46,805 nucleotides of DNA. Source: Minisyncoccota bacterium (lineage in GTDB: Bacteria > Patescibacteriota > Minisyncoccia > Minisyncoccales > Minisyncoccaceae). Each line of letters starts with the position of its first letter. Positions within the stretch are counted from its first letter, which is position 1. This document shows, piece by piece, positions 350 to 46,805 of this stretch. The stretch covers positions 1 to 46,805 of the forward strand of contig JBAZLP010000001.1 of the NCBI GenBank assembly GCA_041650235.1, given 5' to 3'. The position numbers and the translations under genes are program-made. The notes beneath the pieces were generated by a model, which was given only the letters and a program-made list of their open reading frames with translations, searched no databases and was not told the DNA's origin.

Positions 350-2365
350 TCATTTCTTCTTTATATCCTTCTCTAACTGAACTATCTCATCCCTCAATAT
401 GGCCGCCAGTTCGAACTCCAGCTTCTCGGCCGCTTCCTTCATCTTCTCCTTCTTCTCCTTCAATATCTCTTTCAACGGCCTCGCATCCCCCTTCAGATCC
501 AACTCCAATATCTTCTCCCCGTATCTCCTCGCCTTCAATTTCTTCGTATCCAGCCCGAACTGCTCCAAAATGTTCTTTATATTCTTCTCGATCGTCTTCG
601 GGGTTATCCCGTTCTCCTTGTTGTATTCCACCTGTATCTCCCTCCTTCTTTCCGTCTCCTTGACCGCCCTCTCTATCGACTGGGTGATATTATCGGCGTA
701 CAAGACGACCCGTCCGTTGACGTTCCTCGCCGCCCTGCCGATCGTCTGGATCAAACTAGTCTCGTTCCTCAAGAACCCTTCCTTATCCGCATCTAAAACC
801 GCCACCAAAGAAACCTCGGGAATATCCAATCCTTCCCTCAATAGGTTCACTCCGACGATGACGTCGATCAGTCCCTTCCTCAATTCGGTTATCGTCTCAA
901 TTCTTTCCAAGGTCTTAACGTCGGAATGGAGATACTTGACCTTTATCTTCTTCTTTTCGAGATAATCGGTCAGGTCTTCGGCCATCCTCTTGGTCAAAGT
1001 GGTGACGAGAGTCCTTTCCTTGTTCTTGACCTGCTCTTCTATCCTCTTGATCAAGTCGTCAATCTGGGAATCTCCCTCCTTATCCGTGATGGGACGGATA
1101 ATCACCTCGGGATCTATCAATCCCGTCGGACGGACGATCTGCTCGACTATCTGTCCGCTCTCATTCAATTCTTCCGCTCCGGGAGTGGCCGAAACGTATA
1201 TCTTCTTTCCGGTCAATCTTTCGAATTCGGCGTATTCCAGAGGTCGGTTGTCGTATGCAGACTCCAATCGGAAACCGTAATCGATAAGGGACTTCTTCCT
1301 CGATTTGTCTCCGAAATACATTCCTCCTATCTGGGGGATGGTCACGTGCGATTCGTCTATAACGGTCAAGAAGTCCGGATCGGCCATCCTGAAATAATCG
1401 ATCAGGGTGAAGGGAGGCTCTCCTTTCTTCCTTCCGTCAAAATGCCTCGAATAATTCTCTATGCCCTGGCAGTATCCGATGTTCTCTATCATCTCCAAAT
1501 CGTAATTGATCCTCCTTTTCAATCTCTCATACTCAAGAATCTTCCCTTCCTTCTCGAAGAACTTCAACCTTTCCTCCAATTCCTCCCTTATCCCCTTTAT
1601 CGCCTCCTTCTTAGTCTCTTCATTCAAGACGTAGTGCTTGGCAGCGAAGAGAGCGACCTCGTCGACTTCCCTCAAGACATTCCTCCTGATCGGATCGATG
1701 ACTTCGATCGAATCTATCTTTTCCGAAATCCCTATCTTGTATATGGCTTTCTCGTGGACGGGCATAACTTCCAAAACCTGGCCTCTCAATCTGAAGGTTC
1801 CAAGCAACAAATCTTCGTTCGTCCTCTCGAACTGCAAGTCTATCAGCTTTCTCGCCATCTCCTGGCGGTTGATTTTGTCTCCTTTCTTTATCACGTGCAG
1901 GACTTTCTTGTATTCTTCGGGGGACCCCAAGCCGTAAATGCAGGAAACAGAAGAGACAATTATTACATCTTTCCTAGTCATCAGAGCCTGGGTGCAGGCG
2001 TGCCTCAGCCGGTCTATCTCTTCGTTTATCTGCGCCTCCTTCTCTATATACGTATCAGTGTGAGCCATGTATGTCTCCGGCTGGTAGTAGTCGTAATAGG
2101 AGACGAAATATTCGACGGCGTTGTCCGGGAAGAATTCCCTCATTTCGTTACAAAGCTGGGCCGCCAGGGTCTTGTTATGCGAAATCAGCAGTGTCGGCTT
2201 CTGCACCTTCCCTATGACGTTCGCGATGGTGAACGTCTTACCCGAACCGGTTACCCCGAGAAGGGTCTGCTTCTCCATCCCTTCTTCCAATCCCCGAACA
2301 AGCTTTTCTATCGCCTGGGGCTGGTCTCCTTTCGGTTCAAATTGTCCCTTAAGCTGAAAATCCAT
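350..2365 (-). CDS. uvrB: Excinuclease ABC subunit B (UvrB)
   Basis: ORF 350..2410. Motifs: [18 protein letters not shown], Walker [11 protein letters not shown], helicase motifs ([15 protein letters not shown]) and the C-terminal UVR coiled coil ([11 protein letters not shown]). The start is placed at ATG 2365 (MDFQLKG...), which matches UvrB N-termini. The 15 upstream codons in the track have no support. Confidence 0.95.
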
Positions 2366-2389
2366 AGCTTTTGACCTATGTGAACCTGT

Positions 2390-2398
2390 ATTATACCA
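2390..2398 (-). promoter_or_regulatory. Extended -10 promoter element (TGGTATAAT) upstream of uvrB
   Basis: The minus strand reads TGGTATAAT 24 nt upstream of the uvrB ATG. It is preceded by a hairpin (AAGTCC...GGACTT) after the pilin gene stop. Confidence 0.4.
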
Positions 2399-2455
2399 TC
2401 CAAGTCCCAAAACAACAAGAGGACTTAACTTAGTATCGCTAAGAAAGGAGATAAG

Positions 2456-3445
2456 TCAGTCCTTGAGGCAACGGACGGAAAACCCGTAAGCTGCCGAAAC
2501 CGTACTGCGGTAAACCGTGGCGTAAGAATAATCCAGATTGCGGTTCCAGCCGGACGCCCCGGAAGCCCAAAAGGTCGTGTACGTGGAACGATTATTGAAC
2601 GAACCGGCGGTGCCCCGGTAGCCGGCTCCGACTGCGGTAAAAAGAGAGGCGTTGGTGCCGATGTTTGCATGATTTGTCCAGTGGGTGGTTCCCGCTTCCT
2701 TGAGTTTCAGCCCGCCATTGGTTCCCCTCCAACTAGTCGTGGAACAGGAGATTGAAGAATCGACATATTGTTCTAGGGTGCACCACTCTGCGTCGGTCGG
2801 AACGTGCCATCCGGAAGGACAGAGGCCGTGAGAACTGTTGACGGCGGATAGCTGGTAAACAAGACCGAGTTTGTTCGATTTGATGTTAGTAAGAGTCTCT
2901 TCGGCAGTGTTCCCGATATTGGGAGGATAGCCGTAGTATCCGCTGTCAGCAGACCAGGTTGCGGCATATGTGATTGGTGTTCCGTCCCTGTACTTGGTTG
3001 TCATGAGGTTCTCGGCCATCCAGGTCTGGTTCCCTATTGTGACGGTAGCGTATTTGTTCCCGTCGATGTCAGTTAAAGCTGAATCAGCCATGATGCCATA
3101 TGTGGTACCGTCAGAGGCATATTTGTAGTATTGTCCGTTCGGATCGAGAGGAAGGGTGGGAAGGTTTTCTGCGATGGCTTGAGCGAGAGTGGAACAAGGA
3201 GAAGAGCCCGAGGGGGCTCCGATGTTGCAGATTGTTGATTGGACAGGATAGGTCATCCCGTTTAAGGTGCTGTATATAGTGATGGCTTTCTTTAGTGCAG
3301 AGATATCATTCTTCCTCCTGGCATCGTTAGCGGAAGAAGTCGCTCCGCTCATGGTGACGATGATGAGGCCGGAGATGATGCCGATTATGGCTATCACGAC
3401 AAGGATTTCGATTAGGGTAAATGCTTTTTGTCCAAGCTTATTCAT
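2456..3445 (-). CDS. Type IV pilin-like protein fused to a FISUMP (Fibrobacter succinogenes major paralogous) domain
   Basis: N-terminal prepilin cleavage/methylation motif QKAFTLIEILVVIAIIGIISG. The C-terminal half has FISUMP hallmarks: TIGNQTWMAENL, GWHVPTDAEW, GGLKLKEAGTTHW, FTAVGAGYR, FWAS and a terminal GFSVRCLKD. Confidence 0.75.
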   Translation of the reverse strand: MNKLGQKAFTLIEILVVIAIIGIISGLIIVTMSGATSSANDARRKNDISALKKAITIYSTLNGMTYPVQSTICNIGAPSGSSPCSTLAQAIAENLPTLPLDPNGQYYKYASDGTTYGIMADSALTDIDGNKYATVTIGNQTWMAENLMTTKYRDGTPITYAATWSADSGYYGYPPNIGNTAEETLTNIKSNKLGLVYQLSAVNSSHGLCPSGWHVPTDAEWCTLEQYVDSSISCSTTSWRGTNGGLKLKEAGTTHWTNHANIGTNASLFTAVGAGYRGTAGSFNNRSTYTTFWASGASGWNRNLDYSYATVYRSTVSAAYGFSVRCLKD

Positions 3446-3662
3446 GCTTCTTCTTTAATATGATTAAATGAAGAATGAGAGCTAGGGTAAAAAATATGGC
3501 TCCTCCGAAACATGGTGTCAGGAAGGGGTTTGTTCCGGCCGAACAGCCGACTGTACAAGATGTTTTATTGGAATAAGCAATCCATTCCATGGCAAAATTA
3601 TACCAGGCGAACAAGGTACCAGCCAACAATACGAAGAACTGCGTTAAGATTATTTTTTTCAT
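3438..3662 (-). CDS. Small 2-TM membrane protein with conserved Cys (function unknown)
   Basis: ORF 3438..3749. The likely start is MKKIILTQFF (ATG 3662). There are two hydrophobic helices and a CTVGCS...PCFGG segment. It overlaps the pilin start by 8 nt, which suggests translational coupling. Confidence 0.45.
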   Translation of the reverse strand: MKKIILTQFFVLLAGTLFAWYNFAMEWIAYSNKTSCTVGCSAGTNPFLTPCFGGAIFFTLALILHLIILKKKHE

Positions 3663-3676
3663 ATGTTTATTGTTTA

Positions 3677-4300
3677 TTATTTTTCTCCATGGGAAATATC
3701 TGTGCCGTCCATCTTCTTGTATAACATCTTCTTCAGCCCAACCCACCAATCAGTGAACCTGGTTTTCTTCATTTCTTCGAATATCTCTTTAGCTGATTCT
3801 GTTTCAAGAGCTTTTCCGACGTTATTTATCCAATCCATAGCCAATTCATTGCCGAGATCATAATACTCCTTTGCACTGAAAGCGGCCTCGAGCCAATCCG
3901 CATCTTTGGCAATCACGCCTTCCTTGGTATTTCTTTCTTCTATTTCGTTAAAATAATTAACAATATTTTTGAATTCTTCCGGGAGATATTTAATTTGATC
4001 GGAAAAAGAACTTTTCTCCGCTTCCCTACTGTCTATATACCTGGCGGCCACCCTGTGCAGATCTCCGATCCTCACTTCTCCATTATCATGGAAAACGAGG
4101 ATTGAAGCGACCCTCTCCGGACTCAAATCAGTTCCGTCCTTCTTATTCTCCAAGACGGTCAAAATATACCCGATCTGGGCAGCCCTCAGGGAATGCTCCG
4201 CGACAGAATCGGGATTATCGACTCCGATAAGCTTGAATCCGTTATGCCTCTCCCTTTTCAGGACTCCTATTTCGAAAATATAATTGACTATGTTTTTCAT
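3677..4300 (-). CDS. HD-domain phosphohydrolase (YfbR-like 5'-nucleotidase family)
   Basis: SVAEHSLRAAQIG...VFHDNGEVRIGDL...AKDADWLE gives the H...HD...D metal-ligand pattern of the HD superfamily. Confidence 0.75.
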   Translation of the reverse strand: MKNIVNYIFEIGVLKRERHNGFKLIGVDNPDSVAEHSLRAAQIGYILTVLENKKDGTDLSPERVASILVFHDNGEVRIGDLHRVAARYIDSREAEKSSFSDQIKYLPEEFKNIVNYFNEIEERNTKEGVIAKDADWLEAAFSAKEYYDLGNELAMDWINNVGKALETESAKEIFEEMKKTRFTDWWVGLKKMLYKKMDGTDISHGEK

Positions 4301-4308
4301 ACGCTTTG

Positions 4309-4317
4309 ATTATATCA
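4309..4317 (-). promoter_or_regulatory. Extended -10 (TGATATAAT) 8 nt upstream of the HD-gene ATG; leaderless-type arrangement
   Basis: The minus strand reads TTTGATATAAT-CAAAGCGT-ATG. There is no SD between the -10 and the start. Confidence 0.45.
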
Positions 4318-4483
4318 AATCCTGGCATTAAATAAAATTGACAAAACAATCGATTCGGATTATCCTCATAAACAGAAAAGGGGTAATCATGAAAATCCCT
4401 ATTGTCTACGGAGAACGGCCTATCATTACGGCCAGGGAGCCATTCGAGCTTCCCAAAAATAGAAAAGTGATCGTCGCAAAAGC

Positions 4484-4504
4484 TGGAGAGGAAAAACCTC
4501 TCCT
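4484..4504 (-). terminator. Hairpin terminator after the DHH gene
   Basis: The minus strand reads GGAGAGG-TTTTT-CCTCTCC followed by AGCTTTTG, immediately after the stop at 4508. The T-tract is weak. Confidence 0.4.
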
Positions 4505-4507
4505 TCG

Positions 4508-5668
4508 TCATTTAAAATACTCTTTCAAGCACCCCTCGAACTTCTCTATATTCTCATTCTTTACCGTGAACCCCGCTGCCGGAGGATGCCCCCCGAACAT
4601 GACGAGCAATTCTTTGCAGCTCTCCATCGCCTTGACCGCATCCATCCCCTTGGGAACCCTCACCGTTCCCCGGCTTATCTCTTCTCCTTTCCTGTACAGG
4701 AAAACGGGTTTGTCGAAATGATTGACCAGGCGGGAAGCCACCGCTCCCAAATGCTCCGCCTCCCAAACATGCGACCCTTCAAAGATTATAGGGGAATCCT
4801 TCACGGAAACCCTCTCCGTCAATTCATCGACGAGATTGGCAACATTCCTCTGCTTATCGCGGCTTTCTTCGAAAAGCTCCTCAGCCGTCTCAACGGCTTT
4901 TTTGAAGTCCGGCTCGGTTAGAAAAAGATACGGTTTAGAAACGTGCCCGCTTATCCCCGAAGAATTCAAAGCGCTGTTAATCTTGGCAATCATGTCCCTC
5001 TTTGACAAAAAATCCATCGGATTCAAAAGAGAAAAAATGGCCCGTATCGCCGGCCTCTGGCTGTATTCAACCTTCTCTAATCCTTCATTGATAATCTCTT
5101 CGTTCTCTCCCGTTTCGGGCATCATATCCGAAATGGTGGCCAGAGCCGCCAGCTCAACAAAGCTGTCTTTGAGCATGTCCGACATTTGATCTCCCAAAAT
5201 CTCCTCGGCTAGACGCAAAGCCAGCCCGGCATTGGCGAAATCCTTGAAAGGATATTCATCCGTTTCCTGCTTCGGATCGACCACGATATCGGCATCGGGA
5301 ATTCCTCCGACCGTCTTGTGATGATCGATGACTACAACGGAAAAACCGCTGTTCTTGGCGTCTTCTATCTCCCTGAAATTGGTGATGCCGCAATCAAGAG
5401 TGACTATCAATCCGTTAGAAACTTTTGATTTGATGAATTTAAGAGCATCCGCATTCAATCCGTATCCTTCCGTCTTCCTCTCCGGAGAAAAACAAAGGAT
5501 TGAAACCTGCTTTTTCAAGATTGAGGCGAGATTGTCTATCGCCTCCTTGGCAATCACTATCGATGCCACCCCGTCCAAGTCCGAATCCCCGTATATCACT
5601 ATCTGTTCGCCGTCCTCGACGGCTTTTTTAATCCTCTCCGCCGCCTTGTCTATATTCTTAATCTTCAT
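4508..5668 (-). CDS. DHH/DHHA1 family phosphoesterase (short RecJ-like)
   Basis: Motifs IVIYGDSDLDGVAS, TLDCG, VVVIDHH and C-terminal GGHPPAAGFTV (DHHA1). Confidence 0.8.
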   Translation of the reverse strand: MKIKNIDKAAERIKKAVEDGEQIVIYGDSDLDGVASIVIAKEAIDNLASILKKQVSILCFSPERKTEGYGLNADALKFIKSKVSNGLIVTLDCGITNFREIEDAKNSGFSVVVIDHHKTVGGIPDADIVVDPKQETDEYPFKDFANAGLALRLAEEILGDQMSDMLKDSFVELAALATISDMMPETGENEEIINEGLEKVEYSQRPAIRAIFSLLNPMDFLSKRDMIAKINSALNSSGISGHVSKPYLFLTEPDFKKAVETAEELFEESRDKQRNVANLVDELTERVSVKDSPIIFEGSHVWEAEHLGAVASRLVNHFDKPVFLYRKGEEISRGTVRVPKGMDAVKAMESCKELLVMFGGHPPAAGFTVKNENIEKFEGCLKEYFK

Positions 5669-40927: not shown

Positions 40928-42391
40928 TCAACCCAAAAATTCCAATTCCTTCTTCTTGCTCCTGAAGACGATATAAAGGAAAGGGACGTATAATAAAACA
41001 AGGAAAACAAAAGGAAGTTCCACATTCAATACGGCAAAAGGTACCTGCGAAGAAATATGGACTACCTGGACCAGATACCACAAAAGAATAATCGAAGGAA
41101 TCGCAATCGCCCAGGCCAGGAAAGGCAGGACCATCCCGAACAGAGGAAGAAGCAGTCCCAACGCCATCAATAACGGGGTCATCGGAACGGTCAGTATATT
41201 AGAAACAAGGGAAACGACGGAAAAGTACCCGAAAGAATATATCAAGAGAGGGATGGTAAAGACCTGGGCCGACAATGTCATAGCCAGAAGCTCCCTCGTG
41301 AAATCAAATCTGCTCTTGAAAATAAGATTGAGCCAATTGTTGAAAACAGGCCCGGCAAGTATCAGCCCCAAGACGGCCAGAAAGGATAACTGGAATCCCA
41401 GGTCGAATTTCAACAACAAAGGATTGGATAATAATATGAGGAATGCGGCCAGAACCAATGTCCTTAAATTGAACGATTGCCGGCCAAGTATCTGGGAGAG
41501 GAACAACAGAGAAACCATTATCCCCGCCCGCACTGCCGAAGCCGGCATCCCGACCAGAAACACATACAGGAAGGTGAAAACGATGGCCATGACCTGGGCC
41601 TGCTTCCTCCACAATCCCAAAAACAGCAAAACCTCGAAAAGCATGGCCGAGAATACGACTATATGCGAACCGGAAATGGCGATGATATGTGACAGCCCGC
41701 TCCTGCTCAAATCATCCTTCATCTCCTTATCCATCTTCCCGTCATTGTTCAAAATCAACCCCTCCATGACCGGACTCAGATCGGCGGGAATATATTTCCT
41801 CATCTCTCCTCCCATCCTTTCCTTCAACGAAATGGCAGAAAATACCATCACATCGAAAAGATTTCCACTCTTCCCTTTTTCGATTATGGCAATTTCGGGA
41901 AAATACATCGTCGCCGATATGCCGTCCTTGCTCAGATATCCGGCGTAGTCGAAATTATCTTTTTTTTCCGGAACCTCTATCTTTCCTTTTACAACTATTC
42001 TGTCTTTGAATCCGATCGGAGAATACTTGTCGGTAATCAGGAGAATCCTTCCATATTCCGTATCGACAATCGCTTCCGATTTATTGAATCCCCTCTCGAC
42101 ATCTTTCAAAACGGTTCCCTCAAAAACAACCTCTTCGCCGTTCATGCTGACAAGATGACTCTTCTTAACCAGATAAGAGTGGTAGTCGAGATCGAACGCT
42201 CCGAAGAAGAAAGCAATCAGACAGATTCCCATAACGACGATTTCTTTCTTTTCCCAGAACGCTCCGACGATGATTAATCCCGCAATGCACAAGATCGTTC
42301 CCCAAAAAAAAGAAAAGTCAAAAAAGGAGGCAAACAAAATGCCTCCGACGAAAGAAAGACAGAAATAGATTAAGGCATCCGCACCGCTCAT
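40928..42391 (-). CDS. comEC: ComEC/Rec2 family DNA-uptake channel (DUF4131 + Competence domains only)
   Basis: OB-like N-domain between TM helices. Signature SGLSHIIAISGSHI. Polytopic. At 487 aa there is no C-terminal metallo-beta-lactamase domain. Confidence 0.8.
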   Translation of the reverse strand: MSGADALIYFCLSFVGGILFASFFDFSFFWGTILCIAGLIIVGAFWEKKEIVVMGICLIAFFFGAFDLDYHSYLVKKSHLVSMNGEEVVFEGTVLKDVERGFNKSEAIVDTEYGRILLITDKYSPIGFKDRIVVKGKIEVPEKKDNFDYAGYLSKDGISATMYFPEIAIIEKGKSGNLFDVMVFSAISLKERMGGEMRKYIPADLSPVMEGLILNNDGKMDKEMKDDLSRSGLSHIIAISGSHIVVFSAMLFEVLLFLGLWRKQAQVMAIVFTFLYVFLVGMPASAVRAGIMVSLLFLSQILGRQSFNLRTLVLAAFLILLSNPLLLKFDLGFQLSFLAVLGLILAGPVFNNWLNLIFKSRFDFTRELLAMTLSAQVFTIPLLIYSFGYFSVVSLVSNILTVPMTPLLMALGLLLPLFGMVLPFLAWAIAIPSIILLWYLVQVVHISSQVPFAVLNVELPFVFLVLLYVPFLYIVFRSKKKELEFLG

Positions 42392-42975
42392 CTTTTCTTG
42401 AATAAATTAACAAAGACCATGCCCGAGACGAACCCGCCCAGATGCCCCCAGTATGCGACCGAGGTCTCGACGGCCATGGTCGAAAACAGCTGATAGACGA
42501 ACCAGACAAAGATATAGATGACGGCCGGGGCGGTAAAGAAAAGAGCCCTGATCTTATTCCTCGGAAAGAGGACCAGATACCCGCCTAAGGTCCCCGAAAC
42601 GGCCCCCGAAGCCCCTATAACCGCGGCAGCGGGGTCGCTCATGGCAAGAGCATAGACAATGCCCGCTCCCGCCCCGCAAAGGAGATAAAAGGCAAGAAAC
42701 TTGAGGTGGCCCAGACGGGCCTCCAGATTATCCCCGAAGACCCAAAGAAACCACATGTTTATGACCAGATGCCAGAAACCGGCATGCAAAAACAAGGAGG
42801 TGAAGAGGGTGAAAAACTGCCCGTCCGAAAGCTTCTCCGGAGAGAAACCAAAAATATCGATATAGTGCCCGAGATCGTAAAAGGTCGCCAGAAAGACGAC
42901 CGTGTTTAGGGCAATCAATGAAGCGACGACCAAAGGGAATCCTCCTATTCTCTTTTTGTCTCCCAAAGGGATCAT
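42388..42975 (-). CDS. Rhomboid-family intramembrane serine protease
   Basis: HAGFWHLVINMWFLWVFG (H..xN), GASGAVSG (GxSG catalytic Ser) and a downstream HLGG His. Confidence 0.85.
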   Translation of the reverse strand: MIPLGDKKRIGGFPLVVASLIALNTVVFLATFYDLGHYIDIFGFSPEKLSDGQFFTLFTSLFLHAGFWHLVINMWFLWVFGDNLEARLGHLKFLAFYLLCGAGAGIVYALAMSDPAAAVIGASGAVSGTLGGYLVLFPRNKIRALFFTAPAVIYIFVWFVYQLFSTMAVETSVAYWGHLGGFVSGMVFVNLFKKR

Positions 42976-43682
42976 CTTATCTTGAAAAAATCAAAACCTC
43001 CTTTTATCTCTTCCCCGACTTCCTTGAGCAATTCTTCCTCATACGGCCTGGCTCCGTCCAGCTTGGGATCGATCGTCCCCTTTTCTCCCCTGAAGCCCTG
43101 TAAGAAATATCTTTTTGCCGGAGAAATATCCTTGGCCATCCGGACGACATCGGCCCTCGAATGAATCCCGGGAACGATGGTGCTTCGGAATTCGTAATCG
43201 ACTCCCGAATCCTTTATCAAGGAAACCGACTCCTTTATCTTCTCAATATCGACATCTTTTATTCCCGTAGCGATGGAATATTTTTCCTTGTCGAAAGGAG
43301 CCTTGATATCCATAGCGATATAATCAAGAAGTTTTTGATCGATCAATATCTTCAAGATATCCGGATTGCTTCCGTTGGTGTCGAGCTTGATCAAAAATCC
43401 CATCTCCTTTATCTTCTTCGCAAAGGAAACCAATTCTTCGCCGTATACGGTGGGCTCGCCTCCGCAGATAACACAGCCCTCCAAAGTCCCTTTCTTTCCC
43501 TCGAGGAAATCAAAGAATTCCTTTTCCTTTATCTCCGGCTGCTTCTTTATCTCCGCGGGCAAAACCAATTCCTTGGAATAACAGAAAGGGCAGCGGAAAG
43601 GGCATCCGGAGAGAAAAACCGTGCAAGCTAGCTTGCCCGGAAAATCAACCAAAGTGACTTTTTGCAATCCTCCTATCTTCAT
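42972..43682 (-). CDS. nrdG: Anaerobic ribonucleoside-triphosphate reductase activating protein (radical SAM)
   Basis: MKIGGLQKVTLVDFPGKLACTVFLSGCPFRCPFCYS (CxxxCxxC). The start is placed at ATG 43682, which overlaps the stop of the upstream mini-ORF (ATGA). The track's 50-codon N-terminal extension reads through the 95-bp repeat in the wrong frame. Confidence 0.9.
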   Translation of the reverse strand: MKIGGLQKVTLVDFPGKLACTVFLSGCPFRCPFCYSKELVLPAEIKKQPEIKEKEFFDFLEGKKGTLEGCVICGGEPTVYGEELVSFAKKIKEMGFLIKLDTNGSNPDILKILIDQKLLDYIAMDIKAPFDKEKYSIATGIKDVDIEKIKESVSLIKDSGVDYEFRSTIVPGIHSRADVVRMAKDISPAKRYFLQGFRGEKGTIDPKLDGARPYEEELLKEVGEEIKGGFDFFKIR

Positions 43683-43978
43683 GAAGCTTTGAACTCCTTC
43701 CTGTCCTTGAATTCCTGCTGTTTGCCCTCGTTCCACTGGGACACGGGCCTCAGGTAGCCGACGACCCTTGAATAGACCTCGGTTTCCTGAAAATTCTTCA
43801 AACTCTTGTCCTTCTCGAAGCACTCGTTGCACTTGAAGACCATCTTCTCCTTGCCTTCGGGCAATGAGTATTTCAAAAGCTGGCCGTTCTTGATCTCTCC
43901 TTTCTCATTAACTGAGATCTCTTTTCCGCAATCGTGGCAAACATTGCTTATGTTCATATTTTTATTTCTTATTCGCAT
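43679..43978 (-). CDS. Stand-alone zinc-ribbon + glycyl-radical-loop protein (paralog of the NrdD C-terminal domain)
   Basis: CHDC-x31-CNEC followed by EVYSRVVGYLRPVSQWNEGKQQEFKDRKEFK, identical to the NrdD C-terminal glycyl-radical segment. The start is either 43978 (MRIRNKN) or 43957 (MNISNV, just after the nrdD stop). Confidence 0.7.
   Translation of the reverse strand: MRIRNKNMNISNVCHDCGKEISVNEKGEIKNGQLLKYSLPEGKEKMVFKCNECFEKDKSLKNFQETEVYSRVVGYLRPVSQWNEGKQQEFKDRKEFKAS
43687..43781 (-). repeat. 95-bp direct repeat, copy A (3' end of the mini-ORF)
   Basis: 94/95 identical to 43997-44091. The single difference (43742 c vs 44052 a) is a synonymous Val codon change. Confidence 0.95.
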
Positions 43979-46097
43979 TCGCGAGAGACGTCTTCACTTT
44001 GAACTCCTTCCTGTCCTTGAATTCCTGCTGTTTGCCCTCGTTCCACTGGGAAACGGGCCTCAGGTAGCCGACGACCCTTGAATAGACCTCGCAGGGCTGT
44101 TCGATCGCGCACTTGGGGCAGGTGAAATGCTTGCCAGCGATGTACCCGTGGGTCGGGCAAATTGAGAATGTGGGAGTAATGGTGATATACGGCAGCCTGT
44201 TCTTCTCGAATACTTTCTTGACCAGCGTCTTCACCGTCTCGATGTCCGAAATCTCCTCTCCGATGAACAGGTGCTCGACGGTTCCTCCGGTGTACTTGCA
44301 CTGGATGTCATCCTGCAGCTTTAATTCCTCGAAGATGTCATCGGTGTAGCTGACGGGCAACTGGGTCGAATTGGTGTAGTAAGGAATCTTCTTGGTTCCC
44401 AAAGAAATAATGTCCGGATACAGCTTCTTATCCTTCTGGGCAAGCCTGTATGAGGTGGATTCGGCCGGGGTCGCTTCCAGGTTATAGATGCTGTTGGTCT
44501 CCTTCTGGTATCCGACCAGCTTTTCTCTCATGAAGTCCATCACCTCTAAAGCGAAAGATCTTCCCTTCTTGGAACCGATATCGACTCCCATGAAATTCAA
44601 CAATGCTTCGTTCATTCCGCACAATCCGATCGTAGAGAAATGATTGGCGTAGTACTGGCCCTTAGCCTTCTTCACTCCGGAGAGATAATATCTGGAATAC
44701 GGATACAATCCCTTGGAAGTGAATTCCTCTATCGTTTTCCTCTTTATCTCCAAACTCTCCTTGGCCAGATCCATAATCTTGCCCAATCTGTCGAAGAATT
44801 CTTTCTTCGTCTTGGACAGGTATCCTAACCTCGGCAGATTGATGGTGACGACGCCGATCGAACCGGTCAGGGAGCCCGAACCGAACAGTCCTCCTCCGCC
44901 CCTGTTCGATAGTTCAGTCATGTCCAAACGCAGACGGCAGCACATCGATCTTACGTCTTCCGGCTTCATGTCCGAATTGATGTAATTGGCGAAATAGTTG
45001 ATTCCGTACTTGGCCGAAGCCTCGAACATGGGGTCCAAACTCGGATCATCCCACGGAAAATCCTTGGTTATGTTTATCGTCGGTATGGGGAACGAGAATG
45101 GCCTGCCGCTCTTGTCTCCTTTGATCATGGCGGTATAGAAGGCCTTGTCGAGCATCTTCATTTCTTCGGCGAATTCGGAATAAGTTTCCTTCTGGGGAAT
45201 CCCTCCGATGATCACCGGCTGGTTGGCGAAGACCGGAGACGGCTTCAGATCGAGAGTGATGTTCGTGAAAGGAGTCTGGAAACCGACCCTGGTCGGAACA
45301 GCCATGTTGTACAGGAATTCCTGGATGGCCTGCTCGACGTGATTATACGTCATGTTATCGTAGCGGATAAAAGGAGCGAGCAAAGTGTCGAAGTTGGAGA
45401 AAGAAACCGCTCCGGCTGCTTCTCCCTGGAGAGTGTACATGAAATTCACCACCTGTCCCAAGGCCGCTCTGAAATGCTTGGGCGGCTTAGACTCAACTTT
45501 TCCGATAACTCCTCCGAATCCCTTGAGCAAAAGATCGTATAGATCCCATCCGACGCAGTAGCAGGCAAGGGTGTCCAGATTGTGCAAGTGGATATCGCCC
45601 GATTCGTTGGCTTCACGAACTTCGGGAGGATAGACTTTGTTCAGCCAGTACTTCTTAACAATGTATGAAACTCCGTAGTGGTTCAATCCCTGGAGAGAAA
45701 AGGCCATGTTCGAGTTCTCCTTCACCTCCCAATCCAGCTTGTCTAAGTAATCATTGACCCTATCCACCGCTTCTTCGACCGATGCGGCCGATTCCCTGAT
45801 GACCCTCCTCTGTTCCCTGTATAAAATGAAGGCCTTGGCGGCTACCGCCTCCCCTTCGAGTATCAAAACCTCCTCGACTATGTCCTGGATCTGCTCGACA
45901 TTGGGAATTTCTTCGGCTTTAAACCTCCTGTTCAGTATTTTTAAGACTCCGTCGGCGATCTTCTCCGTCTTCTTTCCGTTTCCCTGCTTCGTGGCCGTGA
46001 TCGCTTTGAAAACTGCGTTGAAAATCTTGTTCGAGTCAAATTCAACAATGTCTCCATTTCGTTTCTGGACTTTGGTGATGTGGTTTTTGAGTTTCAT
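43962..46097 (-). CDS. nrdD: Anaerobic (class III) ribonucleoside-triphosphate reductase with an N-terminal ATP-cone
   Basis: ATP-cone (VQKRNGDIVEFDSNKIFNAV). Body motifs: NLDTLACYCVGWDL, and SMCCRLRL with the thiyl Cys region. The C-terminus is CPKC...C followed by the glycyl radical motif SRVVGYLRP. Confidence 0.95.
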   Translation of the reverse strand: MKLKNHITKVQKRNGDIVEFDSNKIFNAVFKAITATKQGNGKKTEKIADGVLKILNRRFKAEEIPNVEQIQDIVEEVLILEGEAVAAKAFILYREQRRVIRESAASVEEAVDRVNDYLDKLDWEVKENSNMAFSLQGLNHYGVSYIVKKYWLNKVYPPEVREANESGDIHLHNLDTLACYCVGWDLYDLLLKGFGGVIGKVESKPPKHFRAALGQVVNFMYTLQGEAAGAVSFSNFDTLLAPFIRYDNMTYNHVEQAIQEFLYNMAVPTRVGFQTPFTNITLDLKPSPVFANQPVIIGGIPQKETYSEFAEEMKMLDKAFYTAMIKGDKSGRPFSFPIPTINITKDFPWDDPSLDPMFEASAKYGINYFANYINSDMKPEDVRSMCCRLRLDMTELSNRGGGGLFGSGSLTGSIGVVTINLPRLGYLSKTKKEFFDRLGKIMDLAKESLEIKRKTIEEFTSKGLYPYSRYYLSGVKKAKGQYYANHFSTIGLCGMNEALLNFMGVDIGSKKGRSFALEVMDFMREKLVGYQKETNSIYNLEATPAESTSYRLAQKDKKLYPDIISLGTKKIPYYTNSTQLPVSYTDDIFEELKLQDDIQCKYTGGTVEHLFIGEEISDIETVKTLVKKVFEKNRLPYITITPTFSICPTHGYIAGKHFTCPKCAIEQPCEVYSRVVGYLRPVSQWNEGKQQEFKDRKEFKVKTSLANANKK
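43997..44091 (-). repeat. 95-bp direct repeat, copy B (3' end of nrdD)
   Basis: See copy A. Confidence 0.95.
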
Positions 46098-46143
46098 GTT
46101 ATTAACATTCTATACTCCTTAAAAATTGCTGTCAATTTTGACA
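46094..46143 (-). promoter_or_regulatory. nrdD control region: TTGACA-17-TAGAAT promoter, TGTCAA-TT-TTGACA palindrome, and AAGGAG plus a 4-codon uORF overlapping the nrdD ATG
   Basis: The minus strand reads TTGTCAAAATTGACA GCAATTTTTAAGGAGTA TAGAAT GTTAATAAC ATG. The -35 is at 46130-46135, the -10 at 46107-46112 and the palindrome at 46130-46143. The uORF ATG-TTA-ATA-ACA-TGA is at 46094-46108, with its SD AAGGAG at 46115-46120. Confidence 0.45.
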
Positions 46144-46189
46144 AATTTTTAGAAGATTTTATACCGCCCCTCCCGTGAAGAGCCTCTGA

Positions 46190-46805
46190 TTATTCCTGCT
46201 TTTCCGAACTCGTGGCTATTACCGTGACCCGTATCTCATTTTTCGACAGATTGTCGTCGAATGAAGCTCCGAATACTATCTTTGCTCCCGGAGAGGCCTT
46301 CTTTTTGATCATCTCGGCTATCTTTTTAACTTCCGAGAGGTAAAAATTCTTGTTTCCAGATGCGACGTTGAATAAGATTCCGTCGGCTTTGTCCAGAGAG
46401 AACCTGGCTAAAGGAGAATAGAGCGCTTTTTCGACCGCGGAGACCGCTCTTTCCTTGCCTTCGGCCTTTCCTGTTCCGAAGAATGCCGATCCGCTATCCT
46501 TAAGTATCTCCCTTATATCCGAGAAGTCCAGATTCAGTATCCCGGGATTCAATATTACGTTTGAAATGCTCTCTACGGCTTCCTTCAAGAGCTCATCGCA
46601 CTTGCTGAAGGCCTTTTCGACAGACGCTTTCGCGGGAATCAGCTCCTGTAATTTGTCGTTGGGGATGACCACCAGGGTATCGACTTTCTTTTTGGTATCT
46701 TCCATGCTCGCGAGAGCGATCTTCTTCCTCTTCTTGCCTTCAAAGGAGAAAGGCAGAGTGACTATTCCTACGGTCAGGACTCCCAGCTTCTTCGCCGCTT
46801 CGGCT
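46190..46805 (-). CDS. ftsZ: Cell division protein FtsZ, C-terminal ~205 codons; the gene runs off the right edge
   Basis: The frame is open to the window edge: AEAAKKLGVLTVGIVTLPFSFEGKKRKKIALASMEDTKKKVDTLVVIPNDKL... These are the FtsZ T7-loop/C-domain motifs. The track ORF's Met at 46705 is internal. Confidence 0.9.
   Translation of the reverse strand, partial: AEAAKKLGVLTVGIVTLPFSFEGKKRKKIALASMEDTKKKVDTLVVIPNDKLQELIPAKASVEKAFSKCDELLKEAVESISNVILNPGILNLDFSDIREILKDSGSAFFGTGKAEGKERAVSAVEKALYSPLARFSLDKADGILFNVASGNKNFYLSEVKKIAEMIKKKASPGAKIVFGASFDDNLSKNEIRVTVIATSSEKQE

Follow-up and report, generated by a model that had tools for sequence, protein, structure and literature searches.

The backbone of glycyl-radical enzymes is cut by O2 at the radical glycine, and for pyruvate formate-lyase (PFL) small replacement proteins have been described: E. 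coli GrcA/YfiD and phage T4 Y06I (vs.6) are autonomous glycyl radical cofactors of this enzyme. According to a 2026 review of glycyl-radical enzymes and a 2021 study of YfiD, such spare parts are known for formate lyases only and the matter is unresolved for other enzymes; the 2021 YfiD paper in JBC merely speculates on spare parts beyond formate lyases. The present study concerns a small gene located between nrdD, encoding a class III ribonucleotide reductase (RNR), and nrdG, encoding its activase, in DNA of a Minisyncoccota bacterium (GenBank assembly GCA_041650235.1, contig JBAZLP010000001.1, positions 1 to 46,805). The whole stretch of 46,805 nucleotides (nt) is called the window below. 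The small open reading frame (ORF) and its protein of 92 amino acids (aa) are both called mini, the glycyl-radical domain is abbreviated as GRD, and NrdD proteins with or without the RVxGY motif are designated GRD+ and GRD−, respectively. Our literature search found no description of a stand-alone NrdD-type glycyl-radical protein, in agreement with the first-pass annotation of the window, which knew of no equivalent for NrdD.

That annotation had also proposed mini as a rescue or replacement module for NrdD, and the proposal is supported as far as sequence goes, by NrdD proteins that lack the glycyl loop and occur only beside mini and by the oxygen-stress and phage contexts of other mini genes. 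The probability that mini is a trans-acting glycyl-radical module, able to substitute for the resident NrdD loop, is put here at about 0.7.

NrdD proteins without a glycyl loop

NrdD and mini genes were counted in species-representative genomes and metagenomes with ORF and BLAST scripts (L numbers are our handles for loci and contigs). Complete GRD+ NrdD proteins were found without a mini gene downstream at 45 loci and with one at 35 loci. GRD− NrdD proteins were followed by a mini gene at 15 loci, of which about 14 are real, L170 being an assembly frameshift; the single GRD− locus with no mini downstream, L075, is an evident frameshift. At the loop-less loci (L017, L025, L166, L169, L176, L180–L182, L186–L190 and L195), a mini gene comes after nrdD in each case and nrdG usually does so too, and mini carries the only glycyl loop present.

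The loop-less NrdD proteins retain their own CPxH...CPKC ribbon and terminate 8–20 residues after it, with final residues such as TKEYKKV, QQKEYAKVL or VEIVRKVCC that align to the EVYSRVV strand, so that the ends of these proteins lie approximately at the point where O2 would sever the backbone, the radical Gly. The nine full-length representatives depart in none of the 103 body columns found invariant among 64 complete NrdD proteins, the RSMCCRLRL finger loop included, and keep just 0–3 of the 12 invariant GRD columns. A neighbour-joining tree of the NrdD body places them at scattered positions among complete NrdD proteins, which points to at least five independent losses of the loop, all of them within mini-containing clades.

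A glycyl radical is indispensable to class III RNR. Since loop-less, otherwise conserved NrdD proteins occur only beside mini, the simplest reading is that mini supplies the radical loop, and the census thus lends strong support to the view that mini can provide this loop in trans. On the same simplest reading, organisms with a loop-less NrdD would run a natural two-piece enzyme, the large subunit of which mimics an O2-cleaved NrdD. In some lineages mini would evidently be an obligatory subunit and not a spare.

Three candidates for loop-less NrdD proteins (L058, L075 and L170) were rejected, as the nrdD frame breaks right before the GRD and these cases look like frameshifts. In L058 (positions 1966–5159) the break leaves a 45-aa GRD-only ORF without a ribbon, which is probably due to a frameshift or assembly error and could be another split type. 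The nrdD ORFs of L058, L062, L068 and L076, at 1012–1716 aa, far exceed the usual length and show interrupted homology, consistent with intein insertions.

The mini gene, its product and its family

The features of the window to which the following description refers are listed below.

43962–46097, minus strand: nrdD, 711 aa, with ATP-cone, NRDD barrel, own ribbon and glycyl loop, GRD+ type (Pfam NRDD 3.7e-192, ATP-cone 1.9e-19; NCBIfam NF006126, 1034 bits)
43679–43957, minus strand: mini gene, 92 aa and a stop codon, encoding a free-standing zinc ribbon and, after it, an NrdD-type glycyl-radical segment (ORF scan; start taken from 434 homologue clusters; Pfam NRDD 5.6e-14)
43958–43978, minus strand: in-frame 5' extension MRIRNKN from an alternative ATG, overlapping the 3' end of nrdD
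43784–43957, minus strand: ribbon module, mini residues 1–58, CHDC-x32-CNEC (four Cys invariant in 113 sequences; hairpin in the AlphaFold2 model; no alignment to the resident NrdD ribbon)
43682–43783, minus strand: glycyl-radical segment, mini residues 59–92, TEVYSRVVGYLRPVSQWNEGKQQEFKDRKEFKAS (matches NrdD 670–700 and also the T. maritima NrdD GRD, 4coi/4u3e)
43757–43759, minus strand: codon of the predicted radical glycine G67 (92-aa numbering) in RVVGY (invariant column in both alignments)
43687–43781, no strand: copy 1 of a 95-nt direct repeat, 3' end of the mini gene (94/95 identical to copy 2; read as a gene-conversion tract)
43997–44091, no strand: copy 2 of the 95-nt direct repeat, 3' end of nrdD encoding the resident glycyl-radical segment (repeat comparison)
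42972–43682, minus strand: nrdG activase, radical S-adenosylmethionine (SAM) enzyme of the NrdG2 type (TIGR02495 NrdG2, 1.3e-57)
46107–46135, minus strand: sigma-70-like promoter match TTGACA-17-TAGAAT, 11/12, upstream of nrdD (consensus match only)

The ORF at 43679–43978 on the minus strand comprises 99 codons, or 92 if read from MNISN, as the first-pass annotation had it, and the homologues indeed begin at the Met of MNISN, which gives a gene at 43679–43957. Conservation starts at MN or MD and the homologues are mostly 92 aa long; the MRIRNKN extension is probably not translated. The TGA stop of mini (43679–43681) overlaps the ATG start of nrdG (43680–43682) as ATGA, and a gap of 4 nt separates the nrdD stop (43962–43964) from the mini ATG, so the earlier placement of mini inside the nrdD–nrdG operon, directly downstream of the 711-aa NrdD gene, could be read again from the sequence. 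In a consensus scan of the window, the junctions of nrdD with mini and of mini with nrdG had neither a promoter nor a terminator match. Owing to the tight junctions, the one upstream promoter match and the lack of matches between the genes, nrdD, mini and nrdG resemble one translationally coupled operon, and mini is probably coupled in this way with both of its neighbours in the window.

The Cys residues of mini are C7, C10, C43 and C46 (92-aa numbering), and its layout is CHDC-x32-CNEC, 13 residues and then EVYSRVVGYLRPVSQWNEGKQQEFKDRKEFK (residues 60–90), a segment identical to NrdD residues 670–700. The residue-for-residue match claimed earlier thus holds and the four-Cys ribbon is present, but 32 residues, and not 31, separate the two CxxC knuckles. 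The Pfam NRDD model (PF13597) matched mini at 5.6e-14 through profile positions 509–562 of 562 only, i.e., the last 54. By the PF13597/TIGR02487 test, mini is not an NrdD catalytic subunit: the barrel and the Cys finger loop are not covered, and the NCBIfam score was 43.8 bits against a cut-off of 326. At the same time, mini has the arrangement of an NrdD GRD, in which RVxGY comes after a metal site with four ligands, and its C7, C10, C43, C46 and G67 are invariant in 113 sequences. One functional trait is shared with GrcA-like proteins, namely that of a small stand-alone protein reproducing the glycyl-radical segment of its parent enzyme; Pfam and NCBIfam scans (E ≤ 1) gave NrdD-type models only, with neither PF01228 nor GrcA among them.

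A hidden Markov model (HMM) of related NrdD C-termini aligned significantly to mini residues 57–91 only and not to the ribbon, so the mini ribbon does not duplicate that of the resident NrdD. The first-pass annotation had drawn the same conclusion, although from an NrdD motif that has to be corrected: the resident metal site is C-x2-H-x9-C-x2-C, i.e., C-x12-CPKC and not C-x13-CPKC, and the extra Cys of its "x5-C" is not conserved among relatives of the window NrdD. Judged from these alignments, the longer Pfam alignment of mini reflects merely the shared CxxC pattern. The NrdD of phage contig L114, which appeared as a full-length match to mini residues 10–90, was rejected as a gapped BLAST artefact, the ribbon of this NrdD being short and normal.

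In a collection of 5.8 billion proteins, 434 clusters at 90% identity matched mini. The 120 matches listed were 74–166 aa long, most of them about 92 aa, and came chiefly from Patescibacteria (Minisyncoccales/Paceibacteria); database labels within the family are "anaerobic ribonucleoside-triphosphate reductase" (as NrdD fragments) or hypothetical. When 1.84 billion cluster representatives (50% identity) were searched with a profile, 4272 matched at E ≤ 1e-3, 567 of them at E ≤ 1e-10; the 150 best-scoring representatives all had lengths of 42–159 aa. The pattern CxxC-x16-56-CxxC-x8-20-[ST]R[VI]xG[YF] was present in 230 of the 269 family proteins collected. The order nrdD–mini–nrdG was found in at least 35 independently assembled genome or metagenome loci.

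Across the 113-sequence alignment of the family, neither the four Cys nor the radical Gly varies. For the ribbons of L192 and L193, the nonsynonymous (dN) and synonymous (dS) divergences were 0.021 and 0.586, i.e., dN/dS was about 0.04; only this pair gave a finite ratio, as synonymous sites were saturated in most other pairs, where dN was 0.07–0.23. By these measures, the mini family is under strong purifying selection.

One homologue carries the NCBI name Minisyncoccus archaeiphilus MNSN_06970, and four contigs with this protein have the order FtsA–FtsZ–NrdD–mini–NrdG–rhomboid–ComEC, the same as the window. In the window itself, at 40928–46805, FtsZ is truncated by the window end, and NrdD, mini, NrdG, rhomboid and ComEC follow; this synteny puts the window among Minisyncoccales-like Patescibacteria.

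The 95-nt direct repeat shared by the 3' ends of mini and nrdD is identical at 94 of 95 positions, far above chance, with the copies lying 310 nt apart. In 13 genomes with the nrdD–mini–nrdG order, 93 nt of the mini GRD were compared with the nrdD GRD of the same genome. The identity was 0.99 in the window, 0.97 in L039, 0.92 in L001, 0.90 in L022, 0.85 in L002 (where the first approximately 60 nt are identical) and 0.73–0.75 in L014, L015, L016 and L034, in which third-codon positions gave 0.42–0.48; the best orthologous GRD identity across genomes was 0.73–0.90. The identical tract always starts at the EVY codons, and the sequence upstream of it is unrelated between the two genes. Because some genomes have only 73–85% identity between the two GRDs, the near-identity in the window is secondary and is read as episodic gene conversion of the mini loop with the resident nrdD loop. 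On these comparisons, mini combines a ribbon of separate identity with a glycyl loop of the NrdD type, the loop having been episodically homogenised with the resident one.

The AlphaFold2 (AF2) model of mini, built from 113 sequences, had a mean predicted local distance difference test score (pLDDT) of 74.6 and a predicted template-modelling score (pTM) of 0.39. Between the Cys knuckles it has a beta-hairpin (strands 25–31 and 37–43); the other elements are a short helix, a Gly segment in extended conformation and a helix at the C-terminus. A Foldseek search of the model against the PDB gave no match at E ≤ 0.001, just generic Zn-ribbon ribosomal proteins, and is uninformative for so small and extended a module. 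The sole match in a profile search of PDB sequences was the T. maritima NrdD GRD (4coi/4u3e), which is weak (E 0.02) and pairs mini residues 59–90 with NrdD residues 613–645. In P. copri NrdD, the GRD is described as having a Zn site, a Gly loop that is buried and a tail on the surface, and it turns disordered in the inhibited state, which fits a module able to enter and leave the barrel. The C-terminal Cys residues of T4 NrdD are reportedly required for radical generation, and this would explain why mini needs a ribbon of its own.

Several variations within the family were also recorded. Mini C-termini with a Cys pair (ending in ATCC or GCC) are common in the Moraniibacteria type (L013–L016, L021, L023 and L034), and 21 of 230 minis have at least two Cys within the last 10 residues; the loop-less NrdD tails of L025, L186 and L189 likewise end in Cys-Cys (e.g., RKVCC). 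Class I and II RNRs have C-terminal Cys pairs through which reducing equivalents are shuttled, and these tails are reminiscent of them. A sole fusion of 166 aa (L245, positions 1180–1680; P0067) joins a glutaredoxin-like domain (weak PF00462 match) to mini; the contig is 3 kb long, the fusion gene adjoins a thymidylate-synthase-like gene, and it may represent either a redoxin link or a gene-call artefact. Two apparent tandem minis in L036–L038 were discarded as overlapping ORFs in high-GC DNA, leaving one copy per locus.

Minis in oxygen-stress, phage and other contexts

In candidate phyla radiation (CPR) bacteria, a Fur-family gene (Pfam FUR, 8.5e-23) lies directly upstream of mini at 23 loci. 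The best NCBIfam models of this regulator were those of PerR (7.7e-27 and 1.6e-23, compared with 3e-12 for Fur and 2e-7 for Zur), all of these scores being below the curated cut-offs. Downstream of mini and on the same strand are genes for rubrerythrin (Rbr) and desulfoferrodoxin (Dfx) in L003 and L010, for rubrerythrin alone in L007, and for a small rubrerythrin-like protein together with an Fe/Mn superoxide dismutase (SOD) at 13 loci. Clusters combining mini with PerR-like, Rbr, Dfx or SOD genes thus occur in L010 (4672–6300), L003 and L007, as well as in L009, L210, L214, L224, L226, L230, L235 and others, and genes for Tgt, a SpoU methylase, NUDIX, Rrf2 and cysteine desulfurase are often found near the clusters with the PerR-like gene. 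These neighbours are the company that would be expected of an oxygen-damage repair factor, which is circumstantial evidence for such a role.

Additionally, a full-length mini is present on about 36 IMG/VR contigs, where neither nrdD nor nrdG occurs within 5 kb of it. In at least nine of them (L082, L083, L087, L091, L094, L097, L102, L103 and L107), mini adjoins genes for terminase large subunit, portal, head-morphogenesis, protease or tape-measure proteins, which indicates that real phages carry mini. As a circumstantial analogy, phage minis would parallel T4 Y06I, the PFL spare part.

Longer minis of approximately 110–125 aa were found in metagenome-assembled genomes of Desulfobacterota/Syntrophales (L012, L019, L027, L029 and L036–L038) and in one of Methanophagales (L008); they have a conserved N-terminal helix (MTIQRLHELFDENPGK...) before the ribbon. 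No conserved neighbourhood of these longer minis was found within ±4–5 kb.

Proposed mechanism, alternatives and known systems

According to the mechanism proposed here, the 92-aa protein would fold its own Cys4 metal ribbon and present the RVVGY loop to NrdG, which would install the glycyl radical using SAM. The activated mini would then insert its Gly loop into the NrdD barrel by the Cys finger loop (RSMCCRL), replacing the resident loop, with its enlarged ribbon anchored non-covalently at a site other than that of the resident ribbon. The NrdD target would be an enzyme with its own loop cleaved, absent or unactivated. In the window genome, mini would be a cheap replacement (92 versus 711 aa) for NrdD cut at the radical Gly by O2, and intact but unactivated NrdD may be served by it too; in related lineages, the resident loop would have been lost and mini would have become the obligatory radical subunit. 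For the window operon, where mini appears to be co-expressed with nrdD and nrdG, O2 damage as the selective driver is advanced with somewhat less confidence than the trans-acting role itself. On balance, we also favour a picture in which class III RNR has two components, one of them an exchangeable 10-kDa "radical cartridge", which would be charged by NrdG, serve as a spare after O2 scission or as the sole radical subunit, and be carried by phages for dNTP synthesis in the host.

The same observations were weighed against other explanations. It could be supposed that mini is a regular, constitutive second radical subunit even where NrdD keeps its loop, being always accessible to NrdG and swapping into intact NrdD, with O2 not the selective reason. 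Such a subunit would suit the tight operon coupling of nrdD, mini and nrdG with no promoter match between them, its obligatory use has evolved repeatedly in loop-less lineages, and GrcA is reported to restore activity to inactive full-length PFL in vivo. We nevertheless consider this explanation unlikely: the resident GRD is perfectly conserved in 35 mini-containing loci and hence still used, the stand-alone copies in PerR-like/SOD/Rbr/Dfx contexts point to oxygen stress, and the related NrdD proteins at 45 loci have no adjacent mini. It is very unlikely that mini acts as a decoy or regulator, competing for NrdG or for the GRD pocket and so throttling or buffering radical formation, even though the segment recognised by NrdG is present in it exactly, its gene lies between those of substrate and activase, and phages carry it as well. 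A decoy cannot explain loop-less NrdD proteins with fully conserved bodies and mini as the only Gly loop, nor does it agree with the invariance of the radical Gly and its flanking residues or with gene conversion keeping the mini GRD identical to a functional one.

Cys4 sites of such spacing can bind Fe, which raises the question of whether mini might be a metal or redox protein, its ribbon being the functional part (in rubredoxin-like electron delivery to NrdG/NrdD or in Fur/Zur-controlled metal handling) and its GRD-like tail a docking peptide. The Fur-family regulator and rubrerythrin among the neighbours, the Cys-Cys tails of 21 of the 230 minis and the one glutaredoxin fusion would agree with this, but the radical loop, including the Gly, is the most conserved part of mini, loop-less NrdD proteins require a Gly donor, and the regulator scores best as PerR and not as Zur or Fur, so this role is extremely improbable. 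Finally, a very recent duplication, or an assembly repeat that was collapsed or expanded, would look like these two copies, with their 94/95 nt identity at a distance of 310 nt, and mini could then be a non-functional remnant of duplication or recombination at the 3' end of nrdD, or an assembly duplication of the 95-bp segment. The first-pass annotation had already argued against a duplication remnant, and the widespread occurrence of the gene (hundreds of clusters and dozens of independent assemblies), the purifying selection acting on it with its invariant Cys4 and Gly, the ribbon half unrelated to the nrdD sequence and the identity of just 73–85% between the two GRD segments in other genomes leave this explanation a negligible probability; it is refuted as far as sequence data allow.

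Some observations weigh against the preferred reading of mini as a trans-acting substitute for the NrdD loop. In the window, mini would be co-transcribed with nrdD and nrdG and has no internal promoter match, so no stress induction is visible there. The AF2 monomer is of moderate confidence and gave no significant fold match. Both O2-cleaved and naturally truncated NrdD proteins retain the resident ribbon, which leaves a second ribbon, that of mini, to be accommodated. Moreover, the PerR-like assignment of the mini-linked regulator stays under the curated thresholds, and the flanks of the PerR-linked, Desulfobacterota and phage minis, in which the presence of NrdD was judged, extended over ±4–5 kb only.

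If the trans-acting reading is true, mini would be the first case of a spare part serving a glycyl-radical enzyme that is not PFL and would add a two-subunit form to class III RNR. The family makes the open spare-part question testable, as it offers a predicted partner (NrdD), an activase (NrdG) and natural "pre-cleaved" NrdD proteins as substrates. It also suggests how minimal-genome anaerobes, e.g., Patescibacteria, might keep their dNTP supply after oxygen exposure, and mini is likely a new phage auxiliary gene. The natural loop-less NrdD proteins, the copies linked to PerR-like and SOD genes and the phage copies extend the case beyond the first-pass annotation.

In comparison with known systems, GrcA/YfiD and Y06I are, like mini, small proteins whose C-terminal part is the glycyl-radical segment of a large enzyme, and the cycle proposed for mini by analogy, activation by the parent activase followed by replacement of the O2-cleaved C-terminus, is the same; as with Y06I, phages carry copies. 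However, GrcA/YfiD belongs to the PF01228 family and mini is of the NrdD type (PF13597), the N-terminal half of GrcA/YfiD is disordered whereas that of mini is predicted to be a folded Cys4 ribbon, and the mini gene, unlike that of GrcA/YfiD, lies inside the nrdD–nrdG operon. Loss of the parent loop, which would make the small protein obligatory, is not reported for PFL but appears to have occurred in some mini lineages. The GRD of full-length NrdD (T4 1H7A/1H79, T. maritima 4COI/4U3E, P. copri) likewise has a metal site, then a buried RVxGY loop and a C-terminal tail; it differs in being tethered to the barrel, whereas mini is untethered, and in its inter-knuckle spacer of x9–12 against x32 in mini (approximately 30 residues longer), the two ribbons being not detectably homologous. 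The split class II RNR NrdJa/NrdJb of Pseudomonas aeruginosa is a precedent for a separate C-terminal RNR module containing a Zn finger. It uses adenosylcobalamin chemistry and belongs to another RNR class, NrdJb has no radical residue, and no arrangement of an intact enzyme plus an extra copy is known for it. Mini is thus probably a protein of the autonomous-glycyl-radical-cofactor kind, now for class III RNR, which would be GrcA-like in its working but stands outside the GrcA family.

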